Below, piece by piece: positions 23,083 to 56,415 of a stretch of DNA of 64,000 bases. The position numbers and the translations under genes were made by a program. This DNA comes from Octopus vulgaris (Eukaryota), in assembly GCA_951406725.2 (NCBI GenBank), contig OX597821.1:33294001-33358000 (forward strand), given 5' to 3'. Numbering within the stretch: the stretch's first letter is position 1; the number at the start of each line of letters is the position of its first letter. Below the pieces are notes generated by a model. The model was not told the origin of the DNA. It saw only the letters and a program-made list of their open reading frames with translations, and searched no databases.

Positions 23083-23446
23083 CTAGCACTATGACCCGAC
23101 AACACTGGGTCATAGTGCTAGTGCTTGCATATACAGCTGCGTGCGTGCACACATACACGCGAGTACTGTCCAAATCTCCGACCAATCACTTACAGCTAGC
23201 TGGCATTCAATTGGCGTATCAAGTTTCGGGCATTTTGATTGGGTTTTGGATAGTAAATTCACAAAAAAGTCACTTCTATTGATTTTTTAATGGCTTTACG
23301 GGGTGACTGGGGAAATGAAAAGATGTGCACGACCACCCTTGGACGGTTTGGAATGACCATAGAAAGTGTGAGCCCTCTAACTGAAAAATTGTGGATTTGT
23401 ATAAAGGACACGCACGCAGACATTTTGCCGTTTATATATATAGAGA
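23083..23446 (-). mobile_element. Non-autonomous Helitron, family B
   Basis: On the minus strand: A|TCTCTATATATATAAACGGCA ... GACCCAGTGTTGTCGGGTCATAGTGCTAG|T. Confidence 0.75.
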
Positions 23447-23851: not shown

Positions 23852-24487
23852 CTAGCAGTATCGCCCGGCGTTGCTCGGGTTTGTAAGGGAAATAACTATA
23901 TAAGCATTTTTAGAGAGTTATAGCCAAAAAATAGCAAAAAATGCATTAAAAATGGAAAAAATATGATGGTAAATTTTTTTTAAAATCGTTGACTCATCGT
24001 AGACATTTTTAGAGAGTTACTTCCCTTATATAATAGCGAAAAAATGCATTAAAATGTAAAAAAACGATGGTAAATTTTTTTTTAAATCGTAGACTCATGT
24101 AGACGCTTTCTTAGCCATTTCTGTTTTGGTGTCTTCAAGCCATGAAGTCGTTGTTCTAAAAGAACGCTGGTCTCCTTGACAACGCATTACGACGTTGATT
24201 TCCTTACACTCCCTTCCCCACAGGTGCAGGTGTGAGCATGGACGCCAACTCCGCCGCCATCGACACACGAAAAATTATGCATTAAAATGGAATAAAAAAT
24301 GATGTTAAATTATTTTTAAAATCGTAGACTCATCGTAGACGCGCGCTAATACTCAGACGGGCTCGATATGAATCACGACTATAAGCTACCCAAATTTGGT
24401 TAAACTGCACCGCAAAATGTGGGAGTAGTTAGGAATCTAAATCGAAGGGGACAGACACTCACACAACTACAGTTTTATATATATAGA
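23852..24487 (-). mobile_element. Non-autonomous Helitron, family A
   Basis: On the minus strand: A|TCTATATATATAAAACTG ... CCCGAGCAACGCCGGGCGATACTGCTAG|T; inserted in (TA)n. Confidence 0.88.
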
Positions 24488-24499
24488 TATACATAGCGC

Positions 24500-25098
24500 A
24501 GTAGTGGTGAGATGTGACAGCAAAGAAAAGCATACATTCACTCTCTGCATGCAATTAGACTCGGAAAGTTCGTGAGGAACCCATTGACCCAATTTGCTGA
24601 CTTTTCCGATAGCACACAGGTCTCAATGAATGGTTGAATGACCAAATCCAAGCTTCTCTGCTAGTTCCTCAACAGTTACGATGAGATTTTGTTCCACCAG
24701 GGTTTTCAGGATGTCCTTGTCGAGTTCTACAGATCTTTCAGGATGAGGCTCGTCTTCTAGGCTGTAGTTTATGGCTCGGAATTTCTGGAACCACCATTGA
24801 CACTGCCTTACGCTTATTGTCCAATCCCCATATACTGCATTAATATTTCTTGTACTTTCCGTTGCGTTGTTGTCTTTATTGAACTCATAAAGCAAAATAT
24901 GCCAAATATGCTCCTTTGTTACTTCCAATATAGCTTTGAAAAAAATAGCTGTTAAAATCGAAATGCGCTCTTCAAAACCTGCACTATGAATAAGGACAAG
25001 ATAAAATTACTACCTGCTTTTATAGCAAGTTAATATAAGTAGTTTATCCCATTCCCCTCTGACTTTTAGTTCAAGCTGTTGAAAAAACCGCATTATTA
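24500..25098 (-). pseudogene. Mariner transposase 5' fragment
   Basis: ORF 24623-24928 (EHIWHILLYEF...NINAVYGD...WFQKFR...LEDEPHPER...EELAEKLG) matches the mariner HTH. After a stop it continues with the WVPHEL motif. TIR-like TAATGCGGTTTTT near 25090. Confidence 0.88.
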
Positions 25099-25368
25099 TA
25101 TATATATACATACATACATACATACATATACACACACACTCTCTCTCTCACACACATGCACACATTTATATTCTGTTATTCTTTTATATGTTTCAGCCTT
25201 GAGGTTGTGGCCATGCTGGATCATGTGTGTGTGTGTGTGTGTGTGTCTATCTGTCTGTCTGTCTGTATGTATATATGTATATGTATGTGTGTGAACAATA
25301 ATATTTTCAACAGATGTGTTGCAAATGTATCTGATTGTTCTCAAGCTTCAGTACTGTGTGTGTGTGTA

Positions 25369-25399
<31 letters not shown>

Positions 25400-25470
25400 A
25401 TGTATGTATGTATGTATATGTATGTATGTATGTATGTGTGTATGTATGTATGTGTGTGTGTATGTATGTA

Positions 25471-25503
<33 letters not shown>

Positions 25504-25706
25504 ATGTATGTATGTATGAGTGTATGTTTACTTTATTACTAACACAAGCCACTACGGTTATTTAATGTAAAGTCTTCCTCAAATCACTCTCTCTGGCTAT
25601 TTACTCTCTTCCAAGAACATTTTCACTCACTCTTATGTGTTAGCTTCCCATACATTTTACTCATGTATCTATCAGCGTGATAGACAGAAACAAATATTAC
25701 ATCTAG

Positions 25707-25973
25707 TTTCATTTTATTCGTTGCACACTGTGTGTGTGCGTTTGCGTGTGGTGTAAACCAGACTAAGAAAAGCATTTGACACACACACCAGAATGTGAGT
25801 TTTCTGTAAATTTTGCTTAATTGGAGTTTAAATTTTAAAAACTGGACCTGGCATGACGCGATGCATTCTACTCTTAAAAATGCTAGGTAAATTGTAATTG
25901 AAGAAATCCTATATTGTAGATTTGTATAACTCCCAAAGGGAGGCAGATAAAATCTGCCTTTTATAATAAGAGA
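25707..25973 (-). mobile_element. Fourth copy of the composite-Helitron 5' module
   Basis: ~267 bp nearly identical to 28485-28751, with the TC end abutting (TA)n. Confidence 0.8.
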
Positions 25974-26250
25974 TATATATATATATATCATCATCATCAT
26001 CATCATCATTTAGTGTCCGCTTTCCATGCTAGCATGGGTTGGACGGTTCAACTGGGGTCTGTGAAGCCAGAAAGCTGCATCAGGCCCAGTCTGATCTGGC
26101 AGTGTTTCTACGGCTAGATGCCCTTCCTAACGCCAACCACTCCGTGAGTTGGTGGGTGCTTTTTACGTGCCACCCGCACAGGTGCCAGACGGAGCTGGCA
26201 AACGGCCACGGACGGATGGTGCTTTTTACGTGCCATATATATATATATAT

Positions 26251-26538
26251 GGAGGCGCAATGGCCCAGTGGTTAGGGCAGCGGACTCGCGGTTTCGATTC
26301 CCAGACCGGGCGTTGTGAGTGTTTATTGATCGAAAACACTTAAAAGCTCCATGAGGCTCCAGCATGGGGTGGTGGTGATCCCTGCTGCACTCTTACGCCA
26401 CAACCTTCTCTCACTCTTTCTTCTGTTGGCCTGCTCGCTTCGACAGCAGGATGGCGTCATTTGAAGGCTAAAACAATGCGAATCGCATTGTGAACAGCGA
26501 TGTGTAGCAACATCTGAGAGCCTGGTCGGTTATGGTGA
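26251..26538 (+). mobile_element. tRNA-derived SINE family C
   Basis: GGAGGCGCAATGGCCCAGTGG head; inverse homolog of 20826-21128. Confidence 0.8.
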
Positions 26539-26562
26539 TATATATATATATATATATATATA

Positions 26563-26953
26563 CTAGCAGTATCGCCCGGCATTGCTCGGGTTTGTAAGGG
26601 AAATAATTATATAAGCATTTTTAGAGATGTAAAGTATAATAGCCATCTCAATATGGCTAACCACAAAGGGGGAGCGGTGTTACTGTAGCTTTTTACGTTC
26701 TGAGATTTAATAATAAATTTTAGAGAGTTACTTCCCTTATATATGTCAAAAATGGATTAAAAATGGGAAAAATGGTAAATTTTTTTTTAAATCGTAGACT
26801 CATCGTAGACGCGCGCTAATACCCAGACGGTCTCGATATGAATCACGACTATAAGATACCCGGTTTTGGTTAAACTGCACCGCAAAATGTGGGAGTAGTT
26901 AGGAATCTAAATCGTAGGAGACAGACACACAACCTCACTTTTATATATAAAGA
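26563..26953 (-). mobile_element. Non-autonomous Helitron, family A (3' module of composite)
   Basis: Has its own TC 5' end (TCTTTATATATAAAAGTG) and the hairpin+CTAG 3' end; homologous to 23852-24487. Confidence 0.85.
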
Positions 26954-27020
26954 TTTCCTCTATTTACATAATATTGAGGTCTCTTTCTTTCTTTTGTTAT
27001 CTTACTGTTTTTACCAATAT

Positions 27021-27073
<53 letters not shown>

Positions 27074-27263
27074 CAGAGATGTACTTGCATAGCAAGTGAC
27101 TTGATCTGAGATCGTGTGCTGGAACGAAAACAGTTGCAGCGTTGAAGGTGTTTATAAGCCATTTAAGAAACACACAAAAACCGTTAGATTCACTTCAACA
27201 TTTAAATTTAATTTGTCAAAATATTTTCGTCGCTTTGAGACCGCGACCTGTTAGCACGATATT

Positions 27264-27314
27264 TTTGTCAGTGAACAGGTCGCGGTCTGAAAGCGACGAA
27301 AATATTTTGGCAAA
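27264..27314 (+). ncRNA. Type I hammerhead-ribozyme-like motif with G3-C8 core variant
   Basis: Stem I TTTGTCA/TGGCAAA, core GTGAACA plus an extra G, stem II GTCGC/GCGAC, GAAA, palindromic stem III AATATT, NUH=UUU. Confidence 0.6.
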
Positions 27315-27759
27315 TTAAATTTAAATGTTGAAGTGAATGTAACGGTTTTTGTGTGTTTCTTAAATGGCTTACAAACACCTTCCAGGCTGCAATATATATA
27401 TACACACATATATATATATGTATGTATGTATGTATGTGTGTATATGTGTATGCATGTATGTGTGTGTGTGTGCATGTCTGTGCTTGTGATTGTCCTCCAC
27501 CACTGCTTGACAACGAATGTTGGTTTGTTTACATCCCTGTCAACTAGTGGTTTGACAAAGGAAACAGATAGAATAAGTACAATGCTTACAAAAATAAAAC
27601 TGGAGTTGATTCATTAAACTACAATTCTTCAAGGCATTGCCCCAGCATGGCCACAGACCAATGGCTGGAAAAAGCAGAAGAATAAAAGAATACATTCTCT
27701 GCTTTGGTCATATGTTGAAGGCATGAGAAAGCTTGAGTTTACATGAGAAGGCCTAACAG

Positions 27760-28238
27760 ACCTGGTAGAAACAGCAGCCAAATCTCCCTCAAATCACACC
27801 TTACTGTCTTATGTATGTATATATATATGAGCCAATGAGGGGGACCTCTACATGGTAGCTAGACCTGGTAGAAATAGCAGCCAAATTTCCCCCAAATCAC
27901 ACCTTACTGTCTTATCTATGTATATATGTATGTATGAGCCTATGAGGGAGACCCCTACATGGCAGCTAGACCTGGTAGAAATAGCAGCCAAATTTCCCCC
28001 AAATCACACCTTACTGTCTTATCTATGTATATATGTATGTATGAGCCTATGAGGGAGACCCCTACATGGCAGCTAGACCTGGTAGAAATAGCAGCCAAAT
28101 TTCCCCCAAATCACACCTTACTGTCTTATCTATGTATATATGTATGTATGAGCCTATGAGGGAGACCCCTACATGGCAGCTAGACATGGTAGAAATAGCA
28201 GCCAAATCTCCCTCAAATCACACCTTACTGTCTTATCT
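27760..28238. repeat. 107-bp tandem array (~4.5 units) inside composite Helitron
   Basis: Unit contains GACCTGGTAGAAATAGCAGCCAAATTTCCCCCAAATCACACC; ORF starts recur at 27852, 27959, 28066 and 28173. Repeated at 29122-29519 and inverted at 30572-31053. Confidence 0.95.
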
Positions 28239-28763
28239 TTCTGCTACTTGGATATAGGTGTTATATTCGTCGTAAAAAACTTTCCTGTCACACACTCACG
28301 CACACGCGCACACACACACACACACACACACACGCACCCTCACACACACACACACACACCCACACACACCCACTCACACACACGCACGTTAGCTTACAAT
28401 TTTATTTATATATTTGCGTGTCTGTGTGGAAAGAGGAAGTGGGAGGCAGAGTGAAAGAATCACTCACTACAGTAAGTGAATTACTTTCATTTTATTCGTT
28501 GCCCACTGTGTGTGTGCGTTTGCGTGTGCTGTAAACCAGACTAAGAAAAGCATTTGACACACACACCAGAATGTGAGTTTTCTGTAAATTTTGCTTAACT
28601 GGAGTTTAAATTTTAAAAACTGGACCTGGCATGACGCGATGCATTGTACTCTTAAAAATGCAAGGTAAATTGTAATTGAAGAAATCCTATATTGTAGATT
28701 TGTATAACTCCCAAAGGGAGGCAGATAAAATCTGCCTTTTATAATAAGAGATATATATATATA

Positions 28764-29121
28764 CTAGCAGTATCGCCCGGCGTTTCTCGGGTTTGTAAGG
28801 GAAATAACTATAAAGCATTTTTAGAGAGTTATAGCCAAAAAAATGGAAAAAAAATGATGGTAAATTTTTTTTAGTTAAAAAGGTCGAGTTGCGTCCCCTA
28901 GACAGTCTGTGGTTTGTGTTTCTGATTCTCGACTCCATGTCGAATTTATCGATTTTTTCAGAACTGGGGGAACTTTTCAAAATTTTCGCTGCGTTAGTTT
29001 TGAATTATGACATTGGGCTATGTGTGTGTCAAGTTTCATCAGAATCGGTTGAAAGACGTGGTCAGGGTGAGGGTACAACCTGACAGACACACAGACAAAC
29101 TGCCGTTTATATATAGAGAGA
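28764..29121 (-). mobile_element. Non-autonomous Helitron, chimeric (family B-like 5' end, family A 3' end)
   Basis: 5' TCTCTCTATATATAAACGGCA resembles the end at 23446; the 3' ~110 bp match family A. Confidence 0.8.
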
Positions 29122-30037
29122 TGAGGGGGACCTCTACATGGTAGCTAGACCTGGTAGAAATAGCAGCCAAATTTCCCCCAAATCACACCTTACTGTCTTA
29201 TCTATGTATGTATGTATGAGCCTATGAGGGAGACCCTACATGGCAGCTAGACCTGGTAGAAATAGCAGCCAAATTTCCCCCAAATCACACCTTACTGTCT
29301 TATCTATGTATATATGTATGTATGAGCCTATGAGGGAGACCCCTACATGGCAGCTAGACCTGGTAGAAATAGCAGCCAAATCTCCCTCAAATCACACCTT
29401 ACTGTCTTATCTATGTATATATGTATGTATGAGCCTATGAGGGAGACCCCTACATGGCAGCTAGACATGGTAGAAATAGCAGCCAAATCTCCCTCAAATC
29501 ACACCTTACTGTCTTATCTTTCTGCTACTTGGATATAGGTGTTATATTCGTCGTAAAAAAACTTTCCTGTCACACACTCACGCACACGCACACACACACA
29601 CACACACACACACCCTCACACACACACACACACACACGCGCACACCCACACACACCCACTCACACACACGCACGTTAGCTTACAATTTTATTTATATATT
29701 TGCGTGTCTGTGTGGAAAGAGGAAGTGGGAGGCAAAGTGAAAGAATCACTCACTACAGTAAGTGAATTACTTTCATTTTATTCGTTGCCTACTGTGTGTG
29801 TGCGTTTGCGTGTGGTGTAAACCAGACTAAGAAAAGCATTTGACACACACACCAGAATGTGAGTTTTCTGTAAATTTTGCTTAACTGGAGTTTAAATTTT
29901 AAAAACTGGACCTGGCATGACGCGATGCATTGTACTCTTAAAAATGCAAGGTAAATTGTAATTGAAGAAATGCTATATTGTAGATTTGTATAACTCCCAA
30001 AGGGAGGCAGATAAAATCTGCCTTTTATAATAAGATA
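28764..30037 (-). mobile_element. Shortened composite Helitron, ~1.27 kb
   Basis: 29122-30037 duplicates 27836-28751. It is joined at an A|T site to an inner Helitron (28764-29121) that supplies the hairpin+CTAG end. Confidence 0.75.
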
Positions 30038-30419
30038 TATCTCTTATTATAAAAGGCAGATTTTATCTGCCTCCCTTTGGGAGTTATACAAATCTACAAT
30101 ATAGCATTTCTTCAATTACAATTTACCTTGCATTTTTAAGAGTACAATGCATCGCGTCATGCCAGGTCCAGTTTTTAAAATTTAAACTCCAGTTAAGCAA
30201 AATTTACAGAAAACTCACATTCTGGTGTGTGTGTCAAATGCTTTTCTTAGTCTGGTTTACACCACACGCAAACGCACACACACAGTGGGCAAGGAATAAA
30301 ATGAAACTAATTCACTTACTGTAGTGAGTGATTCTTTCACTCTGCCTCCCACTTCTTCTTTCCACACAGACACGCAAATATATAAATAAAATTGTAAGCT
30401 AACGTGCGTGCGTGCGTGC

Positions 30420-30466
<47 letters not shown>

Positions 30467-31490
30467 TGTGTGTGTGTGTGACGGTGCGTGTGTGTGTGTG
30501 CGTGTGCGTGAGTGTGTGACAGGAAAGTTTTTTTTACGACGAATATAACACCTATATCCAAGTAGCAGAAAGATAAGACAGTAAGGTGTGATTTGAGGGA
30601 GATTTGGCTGCTATTTCTACCATGTCTAGCTGCCATGTAGGGGTCTCCCTCATAGGCTCATACATACATATATACATAGATAAGACAGTAAGGTGTGATT
30701 TGGGGGAAATTTGGCTGCTATTTCTACCAGGTCTAGCTGCCATGTAGGGGTCTCCCTCATAGGCTCATACATACATATATACATAGATAAGACAGTAAGG
30801 TGTGATTTGGGGGAAATTTGGCTGCTATTTCTACCAGGTCTAGCTGCCATGTAGGGGTCTCCCTCATAGGCTCATACATACATATATACATAGATGAGAC
30901 AGTAAGGTGTGATTTGGGGGAAATTTGGCTGCTATTTCTACCAGGTCTAGCTACCATGTAGAGGTCCCCCTCATTGGCTCATATATATATATACATACAT
31001 AAGACAGTAAGGTGTGATTTGAGGGAGATTTGGCTGCTGTTTCTACCAGGTCTGTTAGGCCTTCTCATGTAAACTCAAGCTTTCTCATGCCTTCAACATA
31101 TGACCAAAGCAGAGAATGTATTCTTTTATTCTTCTGCTTTTTCCAGCCATTGGTCTGTGGCCATGCTGGGGCAATGCCTTGAAGAATTGTAGTTTAATGA
31201 ATCAACTCCAGTTTTATTTTTGTAAGCATTGTACTTATTCTATCTGTTTCCTTTGTCAAACCACTAGGTGACAGGGATGTAAACAAACCAACATTCGTTG
31301 TCAAGCAGTGGTGGAGGACAAGCACAGACACGCACACACACACACATACATGCATACACATATACACACATACATACATACATACATATATATATGTGTG
31401 TGTATATATATATTGCAGTGTGGAAGGTGTTTATAAGCCATTTAAGAAACACACAAAAACCGTTACATTCACTTCAACATTTAAATTTAA

Positions 31491-31541
31491 TTTGCCAAAA
31501 TATTTTCGTCGCTTTCAGACCGCGACCTGTTCACTGACAAA
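31491..31541 (-). ncRNA. Second copy of the G3-C8 hammerhead-like motif
   Basis: Reverse complement of 27264-27314 within the inverted composite. Confidence 0.6.
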
Positions 31542-31747
31542 AATATCGTGCTAACAGGTCGCGGTCTCAAAGCGACGAAAATATTTTGACAAATTAAATT
31601 TAAATGTTGAAGTGAATCTAACGGTTTTTGTGTGTTTCTTAAATGGCTTATAAACACCTTCAACGCTGCAACTGTTTTCGTTCCAGCACACGATCTCAGA
31701 TCAAGTCACTTGCTATGCAAGTACATCTCTGTAACTATATATATATT

Positions 31748-31778
<31 letters not shown>

Positions 31779-31841
31779 TGGTAAAAACAGTAAGATAACA
31801 AAAGAAAGAAAGAGACCTCAATATTATGTAAATAGAGGAAA

Positions 31842-32235
31842 TCTTTATATATAAAAGTGAGGTTGTGTGTCTGTCTCCTACGATTTAGATTCCTAACTAC
31901 TCCCACATTTTGCGGTGCAGTTTTACCAAAACCGGGTATCTTATAGTCGTGATTCATATCGAGACCGTCTGGGTATTAGCGCGCGTCTACGATGAGTCTA
32001 CGATTTAAAAAAAATTTACCATCAATTTTTCCCATTTTTAATCCATTTTTGACATATATAAGGGAAGTAACTCTCTAAAATTTATTATTAAATCTCAGAA
32101 CGTAAAAAGCTACAGTAACACCCCTCCCCCTTTGTGGTTAGCCATATTGAGATGGCTATTATACTTTACATCTCTAAAAATGCTTATATAATTATTTTCC
32201 TTACAAACCCGAGCAACGCCGGGCGATACTGCTAG
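31842..32235 (+). mobile_element. Non-autonomous Helitron, family A (3' module of composite)
   Basis: A|TCTTTATATATAAAAGTG ... hairpin ... CTAG|T. Confidence 0.85.
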
Positions 32236-33078
32236 TATATATATATATAATAATGTTCTGAATTCAAATGCTACTGTGTTACACTTTGCCTTACATTCTT
32301 TCTATTGTGGATAAAATACTCTTCAAGTTCTCAGGCTGTGCCTTAATTAGAAATAGTATAAGTGTATAATAGTATAAGAATCTTGAAGCAGACAAAGCTA
32401 CAATCAATAGAATCTAAATGTTGGGTTTAAAAAACCCTTTCTCTGCTTTGAGTTTCACCTTTTCAAAATCAAAAATAAAAAATTATTTTCCTTACAAAAT
32501 GAACATTTTTCAAGAATTTAGGTGCCAAATAATATCTTTTTATTTATTTATTTATTTATTTATTTGCTTAGTCCTTCTACTATAGCCTCAGGCCAACCAA
32601 AGACTTGTGAATGTATTTAGTTGAGAGAAACTGGAAGCCTCTCGTAGATATGTGTGTGTCTTCGTGTCTGTGTTTGCCAACCCCCCTCCACTGCTTGACA
32701 ACCAGTGTTGGTGTGTTTGCGTCCCTGTAACTTTGTGGTTTGGCAAAAAGGACCGATAGAATAAAAAGGAAATAAATACTGAGGTCAATTAGTTCAACTA
32801 AGATTCAAGGCGGTGCTCCAGCATGGCCGTAGGTTAATTACTGAAATAAGTAAAAGATAAAAGATATATTTTTATATGCAGCATCTCAAGACTTTCAATG
32901 ATCAACAGTTTCTCTTTCTTTAAACTCAAGCTAAGAGCCAACAAGGTGGACTCTAGCTGGTCGCTTGACATATTTTAGAAAATAGCAGCCCTGTTCCTCA
33001 CAGATGCTGTCCTACGCTTAAATTCAGAAAAGAAGGACACATTAGACAATGAAGTCCTTGATACACACTGACATGGGG

Positions 33079-43254: not shown

Positions 43255-43952
43255 CAGGCCTGGCCAATTTTAATTGCATTGCGGGCCACTTTAATCACTG
43301 AAAGTTTTTTAGAGGGCCACTTGTATACTGGCAAAATTGAAAGCATTTTGCTTTCTCCTGCTATTATTACAATAATGAATGAATGATCATTGCTATTATT
43401 ACAATAATAAATGAATGATCATTGCTATTATTACAATAATGAATGAATGATCATTGCTATTATTACAATAATGAATGAATGATCATTGCTATTATTACAA
43501 TAATGAATGAAGGATCATTGCTATTATTACAATAATGAATGAATGATCGTTGCTATTATTACAATAATAAATGAATGATCATTGCTATTATTACAATAAT
43601 AAATGAATGATCATTGCTATTATTACAATAATGAATGAATGATCATTGCTATTATTACAATAATGAATGAAGGATCTTGCTATTACAATAATGAATGAAT
43701 GATCGTTGCTATTATTACAATAATGAATGAATGATCATTGATTCAGCATGAAATATTATTGTTGTAAAAACAGCAGTACCTTTAATTTTGGATAAAATTT
43801 GAAAAATTTTTGTTTAAATAAACCCATTTCAAGAAAGTATCAAGTGGGCTGCATGATAACTGTCTGTGGGCTGCATGATAACTGTCTGTGGGCTGCATGA
43901 TAACTGTCTGTGGGCTGCATGCAGCCCACGGGCCTCAGGCCGGCCAGCTCTG
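43255..43952. mobile_element. hAT-type MITE (Charlie/Buster-like) carrying two tandem arrays
   Basis: Termini CAGGCCTGGCC ... GGCCAGCTCTG; perfect 8-bp TSD CACTAACT with central TA. Confidence 0.82.
43359..43740. repeat. 32-bp minisatellite, ~12 copies
   Basis: Unit TTGCTATTATTACAATAATGAATGAATGATCA, head-to-tail with no spacers. Confidence 0.95.
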
Positions 43953-56114: not shown

Positions 56115-56415
56115 TCTATATATATAAAAGAAAAGTTGTGTGGTGTCTGTCTCCTATGATTTAGATTCCTAACTACTCCCACATTTTGCGGTGTAGTTTA
56201 ACCAAAAGTGGGTATCTTATAATCGTGATTCATAATGAGCCCTTCTGGGTAATAGCGCGCATCTACGATGAGTCTACGATTTAAAAAAAAATTTACCATC
56301 ATTTTTTTCCATTTTTAATGCATTTTTTGCTATTATATAAGGGAAGTAACTCTCTAAAAATGCTTATATAGTTATTTCCCTTACAAACCCGAGCAACGCC
56401 AGGTGATACCGCTAG
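56115..56415 (+). mobile_element. Non-autonomous Helitron, family A, stand-alone copy
   Basis: A|TCTATATATATAAAAG ... CCCGAGCAACGCCAGGTGATACCGCTAG|T; homologous to 31842-32235. Confidence 0.85.

Follow-up and report, generated by a model that had tools for sequence, protein, structure and literature searches.

Composite Helitrons in the window

The window analysed here, 64,000 nucleotides (nt) of contig C8 (33,294,001-33,358,000) in the 2.8-Gb genome of Octopus vulgaris, holds four composite units, designated U1 to U4, each of which opens with a closely similar 5' module and closes with the end of a smaller Helitron (Table 1). All four were confirmed by self-comparison of the window. Module 5' ends were located at 25973, 28751 and 30035 on the minus strand and at 30040 on the plus strand, in agreement with a preliminary description of this DNA for all but the third, which had been placed at about 30037; the U3 module begins with TCTT, two bases short, and starts of this kind are referred to below as short starts. 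The four module copies are 97.8-98.9% alike over 270 bp. The CTAG terminus that they share, previously placed 1.3-2.2 kb downstream of each module, was found at measured distances of 2122 (U1), 2189 (U2), 1272 (U3) and 2196 bp (U4), with a one-base difference in U2 and likewise in U3, and the TA tracts at 26538-26562, 28752-28763, 30036-30039 and 32236-32249 lie exactly as first described. The cargo of the units had been called different, which was overstated: U2 and U4 are 97.0% alike over their whole length, U3 corresponds to U4 bases 3-955, and U1 has only the module and the small-Helitron end in common with the other units. The window contains two cargo types and one truncation.

The 8-bp hairpin near the 5' end of the module folds (z -2.8), and the 3' hairpin, a 6-pair GC stem that ends 12 nt before the terminus, is weak (-4.5 kcal/mol, z -0.8). 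Small Helitrons inside the units start at 24487, 26953, 29121 and 31842. Copy number of the 107-bp repeat ranges from about 0 to 7 among relatives. The 259-bp palindrome, earlier described as ribozyme-like, folds into one long hairpin and not into a multi-stem core, and no ribozyme model appeared among its 56 Rfam matches at E<=1, all of which were below the gathering score; full-length copies (85-88%) occur outside composites at loci L100 and L103. The repeat piece at 31115..31339 is presumably a short interspersed nuclear element (SINE).

Table 1. Positions of the composite units, their parts and the adjoining TA tracts
Feature	Positions	Strand	Length
U1, non-autonomous composite Helitron, second cargo type, 10 members in the sample	23852..25973	-	2122 bp
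Small Helitron h1, source of the U1 3' hairpin and CTAG	23852..24487	-	636 bp
U1 5' module, first 282 bp of RepHel family B (97.2%)	25692..25973	-
TA target tract, left part	26538..26562
U2, composite, main subfamily, 55 members in the sample	26563..28751	-	2189 bp
Small Helitron h4, source of the U2 3' end, also free-standing	26563..26953	-
Palindrome in U2, dispersed fold-back repeat	27134..27392		259 bp
107-bp tandem array in U2, 4.5 copies	27758..28238	-
TA spacer between U3 3' end and U2 5' end	28752..28763		12 nt
U3, element of U2/U4 type truncated at the array and closed by an inserted h3, TCTT start	28764..30035	-	1272 bp
Small Helitron h3, 89% similarity of its first ~235 bp to the RepHel family A 5' end	28764..29121	-
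107-bp array in U3, 3.8 copies	29121..29519	-
TA spacer, U3 and U4 head to head	30036-30039		4 nt
U4, composite, head to head with U3	30040..32235	+	2196 bp
U4 5' module with 8-bp hairpin, 96.3% to family B bases 1-270	30040..30309	+
107-bp array in U4, 4.5 copies	30571..31053	+
Dispersed-repeat piece, 70-75% similarity to about a dozen further places in the window	31115..31339
Palindrome in U4, one long hairpin	31413..31671		259 bp
Small Helitron h4, source of the U4 3' hairpin and CTAG	31842..32235	+
TA target tract, right part, behind the U4 CTAG	32236..32249		14 nt

A Helitron-like start is also present just left of U1, at 23446 on the minus strand, and the same start was seen behind insertions at L116, L151 and L153. 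A free-standing small Helitron at 56115-56415 (+) has a 5' part 88% like h4 and the shared terminus.

Dispersed subfamilies and the source of their ends

Exact copies of the module tip number 3,517 genome-wide and those of the h4 tip 2,527, and there are 17,420 copies of the shared 28-nt terminus. For closer study, 38 loci were fetched around the best matches, a set biased to U4, together with 60 stretches from contig C1, of which 56 were unbiased, being consecutive entries in the list of module tips. Units with both ends present and a length of 0.9-3 kb (134 in all) fell into 20 architectures, 11 of them with at least two members (38 of the loci being U4-biased), the U2/U4 type accounting for 55 units and the U1 type for 10. 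Within the eight largest groups the mean pairwise distance was 0.6-3.2%, values that show the families to be young.

Full-length copies are dispersed in unrelated flanks and have precise ends, with A before TC and T behind CTAG. Thus, TC stood at the start of all four units and of 147 of the 148 distinct starts in the sample, while among 122 distinct flank pairs, in which duplicate loci with identical flanks were entered once, the 3' letters were CTAG in 117 and CTAA in 2, and the base behind the element was T in 120. The base before the element was A in 105 pairs and another element's G directly in 15, so that A preceded 105 of the 107 sites where no other element lay directly upstream. Clean empty paralogs without target duplication were found for L042 (70/70), L137 and L129 (98.6%); these alone were used from a search in which 21 of 40 queries matched, many of them in low-complexity sequence or as self-hits. 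The TC and CTRR ends, 3' hairpin, insertion between A and T without duplication, RepHel relative and dispersed copies are those of HLE1 elements, and the insertion between two T residues that marks HLE2/Helentrons was not seen, T preceding the element in only 2 of the 122 pairs. Three pairs of loci, L039 (C20)/L047 (C5), L135/L139 and L205/L206, have identical flanks and insertion and represent segmental duplications or redundant assembly. At L136 (C1) and L188 (C7), two composite subtypes occupy apparently the same base of the same repeated flank, i.e., a reused target site.

In the 56 unbiased loci a 3' end was reached by 66 of 68 tips, 55 at the borrowed terminus and 11 at the native terminus of a larger Helitron, family B, described below. 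The upstream DNA of the composite was lacking at 23 of 30 h4 tips, and 21 of these 23 closed between A and T after 379-401 bp, which makes h4 an independent element. The free h4 and the precise, genome-wide full-length copies bear out the earlier view of the units as non-autonomous Helitron composites with a borrowed 3' terminus, and these composites are fixed, dispersed subfamilies that moved as units.

The source of the module was found by searching for the Helitron Rep domain, with 150 of 1,172 candidates scored. One of ten Rep loci examined (L105/L106) starts with the module; this family B element is 6,841 bp long and contains a 1,351-codon frame and two further pieces, the Pfam domains PF14214, PF05970 and PF21530, with PIF1 among them, and its own hairpin-CTAG end. 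Likeness to family B is 96.3% over U4 bases 1-270 and 97.2% over U1 bases 1-282, the last 28 nt of family B are near-identical to the terminus of the composites, and among 20 more copies the module tip was present in 14 and the native 3' end in 17. The match to family B ends at various points (~245, 270-282, 490 and 660), other subfamilies matching more loosely to ~490 or 660. The module is thus the left end of an autonomous-type RepHel family and not a free unit. It had been described as terminator-less, a description at odds with the 3' end that family B possesses and in which 11 of the 66 sampled elements terminate. The possibility that the module is a complete 273-bp mini-Helitron, raised by a CTAG and weak hairpin in some copies, was rejected as none of the 66 elements ended within 400 nt of the tip and the sequence continues in family B. 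Chimeras of the reverse kind, comprising the module, a small-Helitron 5' half and the family B 3' part, were noted at L140, L145, L150, L162, L169, L170, L176, L178 and L180.

A second RepHel family, family A (about 6.1 kb, L087-L100), is represented by seven copies 98.4-99.8% alike, six of which carry frames of 1,549-1,744 codons, and is a candidate active Helitron. Its first ~235 bp are 89% like h3 of U3. One family A copy lies ~180 kb from the window.

The origin of one subfamily could be traced. The junction between the 107-bp array and h3 seen in U3 is present at three unlinked loci (C3, C7 and C8), all with a module start, an end at the h3 CTAG and unrelated flanks, and the h3 insertion point corresponds in U2/U4 to an A-T step followed by the remainder of the element. 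In the simplest interpretation, h3 inserted in a U4-type copy and the product would have been mobilized from its outer left end as far as the first terminator. Fresh capture of cargo at this locus is not supported, since each cargo type is a multi-copy subfamily. The proposal that the module reads through to the end of a downstream Helitron likewise fails for U3, which arose by nested insertion and termination at the first terminator, but may apply to the cargo of U1 and U2/U4. According to this explanation, a family B left end without a terminator was read through to the next small Helitron and carried flanking DNA with it, as shown for Helraiser (PMC4778049). The cargo does resemble ordinary intergenic DNA in its pieces of dispersed repeats, microsatellites and a free-standing palindrome, and the varied points at which the match to family B ends are also those expected of such an origin. 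Against it, no source locus was found for the U1 or U2/U4 cargo in a comparison made uninformative by short loci that clip other composites, the sole traceable case is a nested insertion, and 11 of the 66 elements retain the 3' end of family B itself. Read-through is a credible though less favored account; it may be the first origin of the U1 and U2/U4 cargo, is compatible with the explanation preferred below and leaves stacking unexplained. The composite structure alone is a new example of known behavior. In practical terms, one left end that heads at least 20 architectures means that consensus libraries will split or merge such elements wrongly.

Stacking and the target sequence

Clustering of units was evident from several counts. 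Thus, 24 of the first 100 module tips on C1 had another within 5 kb, 1.4 being expected from a uniform distribution, and flush tail-to-head CTAG/TC junctions numbered 253 (193 with a short and 60 with a long start), about 0.1 being expected at random. The first 100 of 147 matches that allowed a spacer included 38 flush junctions, 16 with 12 nt and 17 with 14 nt; ten of the latter come from one array, and 12 nt is the commonest non-zero spacer when one tandem array is counted once.

Neighboring units were generally not copies of each other. Adjacent pairs were of unlike type in 17 of 25 cases, with just one ordered unlike pair recurring, and in 7 of 10 like-type pairs the neighbors were not each other's closest relative (for U2 and U4, mutual relatedness ranks were 19 and 17 of 54). 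These findings indicate that most stacks were built by separate insertions and that local copying accounts for a minority (L049 and perhaps L183 and L185). The alternative that stacks arise from one element by rolling-circle concatemer formation or local tandem duplication draws on the identity of CTAG/TC with a circle junction (PMC5876387), on the three like-type pairs that are closest relatives and on a homogeneous array of at least 10 units at C2:206.16-206.18 Mb. As a general cause it is refuted by the frequency of unlike neighbors, by the distant like-type pairs and by the head-to-head junction and TA spacer of the stack in the window, and it holds for a minority of loci; we therefore regard it as an improbable explanation of stacking. 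The array just mentioned (L049, C2:206,160,149-206,182,000) comprises at least 10 U4-type units with a period of ~2,182 bp and 14-nt TA for all spacers, and is a Helitron on its way to becoming a satellite-like array. Module-bearing units in further inverted arrangements, giving long inverted repeats, were noted at L031, L046, L111, L129, L184 and L185, those at L031 and L111 including head-to-head pairs like U3/U4.

Exact CTAG/TC junctions between unlike types would also result if circular intermediates recombined into a resident element through the shared 270-bp module, copies of which are ~96-99% alike, with no choice of target by the transposase. Recombination, however, can produce neither the 12-14-nt TA spacers nor the flush junctions with unrelated small-Helitron starts seen at L042 and L050, nor does it account for the motif, described next, at sites in non-Helitron DNA, and this explanation too is unlikely.

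A sequence at fixed distance was apparent behind the insertion sites, namely (T)ATAA(A), which lies at +6 to +8 from the cut in a strand-specific manner, or, instead, a TA run of at least 10 nt. TATAAA stood at +7 in 14 of 56 sites that were neither in a TA tract nor at a module start. For unbiased non-TA sites the count was 10 of 39, compared with 0.43 expected from AT-matched sequence, 0/39 on the mirror side and a background of 0.29% of all A-T sites. ATAA at +7/+8 was present in 23 of 39 further sites (1.8 expected), a count that is not a blind test, the +7/+8 window having been picked after the flanks were viewed, and in 7 of 12 family B ends. TA tracts made up 22 of 64 unbiased sites compared with 8% of all A-T sites; 50 of 54 copies in such tracts have 10 nt or more of TA behind them, the median TA run before them being 4, in agreement with the U3-U2 spacer of 12 nt and the 14 nt of TA that follow U4. 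The enrichment of TA tracts, together with the 3'-side AT-rich DNA favored by Helraiser (PMC4778049), might suggest a plain preference for AT-rich DNA and TA microsatellites with no positional motif. That explanation has little probability given a motif that is ~8- to 20-fold above AT-matched expectation, is concentrated at one or two positions and does not occur on the mirror side, and it does not account for the unequal frequency of flush neighbors, which were found at 32% of short but 2% of long starts (a ratio that is approximate because the two patterns differ slightly in length).

The module itself carries TATAAA, exactly at +7 in the short start and at +9 in the long. Short starts were seen in all eight groups examined, which excludes the possibility that they mark a subfamily, and they occur mostly behind long TA tracts (11/26 vs 3/101). 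Starts of family A are eroded likewise beside TA tracts. A short head was present in 15 of 35 chains of short junctions, and TCTCTCTT heads, which would mark a long-start insertion two bases into a resident, were absent among the starts displayed in the sampled loci. The motif behind insertion sites matches this 5' end and probably drives stacking.

An assembly error is a very improbable source of the stack or of the short starts. No read or contig crossing the stack was shown, no record from another individual that crosses it was found, and short starts cluster behind the long TA tracts where base errors are likely and may have affected the short heads of chains. On the other hand, U2 and U4 are not identical and are each more closely related to other copies, every junction is precise, similar junctions number in the hundreds and lie on many contigs, and the 193 flush short starts follow CTAG without a TA tract. 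There is a hint, and only a hint, of an allele without the U4 end at the right flank, which would fit the contig of run X3 that covers 32236-32529 with 15 letters left on the element side, and those of runs X2 and X4 that cover 32236-32328 with 5-6 letters left.

Taken together, these results show the units to be dispersed non-coding composites of a RepHel Helitron left end and a small-Helitron end, which probably arrived one by one because the transposase probably picks targets resembling a Helitron's own left end. RepHel would use one mode of recognition for the donor left end, the circle junction and the target, cutting before T and reading, 7-8 nt downstream, an ATAA core. Preferred targets would thereby be Helitron left ends and TA tracts, with a new copy landing either flush before a resident (CTAG/TC) or, within a TA tract, at a distance of 12-14 nt ahead of it, and the same preference would place small Helitrons within larger ones. 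Replication from the outer left end would then halt at the first terminator and give rise to a new subfamily, the route traced for U3. Less firmly, loss of the first TC beside long TA tracts may move TATAAA into the +7 register, in which case short-start copies would be hit ~15 times more often and chains would keep growing; slippage beside the tract could repeatedly retune a resident into a better target.

Besides the choice of the +7/+8 window noted above, several observations weigh against this explanation. The insertion sites are survivors in one assembly and not new insertions, and the motif was present at ~40-60% of non-TA sites, i.e., as a preference and not a requirement. The long start, with TATAAA at +9, is the common one, so that donor and target registers differ for most copies, and ATAA at +7/+8 was found in 1 of 3 family A ends. 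The age order predicted for stacks (upstream younger) was observed in 9 cases and contradicted in 5, with 2 ties, while the like-type pairs at L049, L183 and L185 are mutual closest relatives and fit local copying. Finally, none of the 21 family B copies had an unbroken reading frame, and no working transposase was found among them.

A broader proposition, to which we give slightly less than an even chance, is that Helitron transposases are not 'AT-only' but recognize the target as they would their own left end (cut before T, ATAA at +7/+8). If true, this rule would account for the known preference for other, similarly oriented Helitrons, for flush junctions that need no concatemer replication, for TA-tract targeting and for the continual emergence of chimeric families, and perhaps for proximity to TATA boxes, while erosion of TC near unstable TA tracts would act as a ratchet, with stacks growing at the front end. 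A fixed-distance motif that mimics the left end would be a concrete, testable cause for adjacent landing, and tail-to-head junctions in genomes need not all be concatemers. Whereas the composites are unremarkable, the target rule merits follow-up.

Elsewhere in the window, a 32-bp tandem repeat at 43359-43740 (12 copies, 94% alike) is unrelated to the Helitron finding.

Comparison with known systems

Nesting, chimeric ends and abutting insertions are already in print, and the target rule is the new point. Among rolling-circle elements, IS91 has a transposase of the HUH type. Members of the IS91 family insert site-specifically (PMC8788227) and likewise have a target preference, although they are prokaryotic. 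Oyster Helentrons include non-autonomous elements with short internal tandem arrays, comparable to the 107-bp array, but insert at TT and not, as here, between A and T (PMC7492417). The repeat annotation of Octopus vulgaris lists 8 recently active Helitron families, their structure and targets being unmentioned in the available part of that source (PMC13282606).

Chimeric Helitrons are known from bats, maize and Fusarium (PMC4778049, PMC3288121, PMC5148889). FoHeli elements of Fusarium oxysporum, for which self-insertion, a stop at the first 3' terminus and two 5' ends were proposed, resemble the U3 route; they differ in their non-canonical Helitron2-like ends, the model was based on few examples, and no downstream target motif is reported in the part of the paper available (PMC5148889). 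The route traced for U3 was proposed for maize as well (PMC3288121). Maize Helitrons with multiple termini (PMC3288121) and silkworm Helitrons formed by combination (PMC3789558) share with the units described here preferential insertion near or inside other Helitrons, multiple termini that result from nesting, and stepwise capture; the maize cargo consists of gene fragments and not of non-coding repeats. As far as these two sources were available, neither gives a cause in sequence for the preference, and landing of Helitrons beside each other was reported without a cause (PMC3288121).

Among canonical Helitrons (HLE1), Helibat/Helraiser of Myotis bats has the same 5' TC, 3' hairpin and CTAG, insertion between A and T and RepHel partner (PMC4778049, PMC5876387, PMC11417382). 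Abutting insertions of Helraiser were part of 39/395 copies, compared with at least 253 flush junctions for one module here, and 1,751 Helraiser insertions have been published (PMC4778049). Its targets are AT-rich, mainly on the 3' side, and the available part of that report describes AT richness with neither a fixed-distance motif nor left-end likeness (PMC4778049), both of which were seen here. No fixed-distance target motif for Helitrons was found in the literature searched, although some key papers, logos and supplements outside the search may hold one. De novo Helitron sites in wheat are AT dinucleotides (PMC13286980), and a review holds that, apart from the dinucleotide, Helitrons do not prefer unique sequences (PMC8788227), a statement that the present data qualify.

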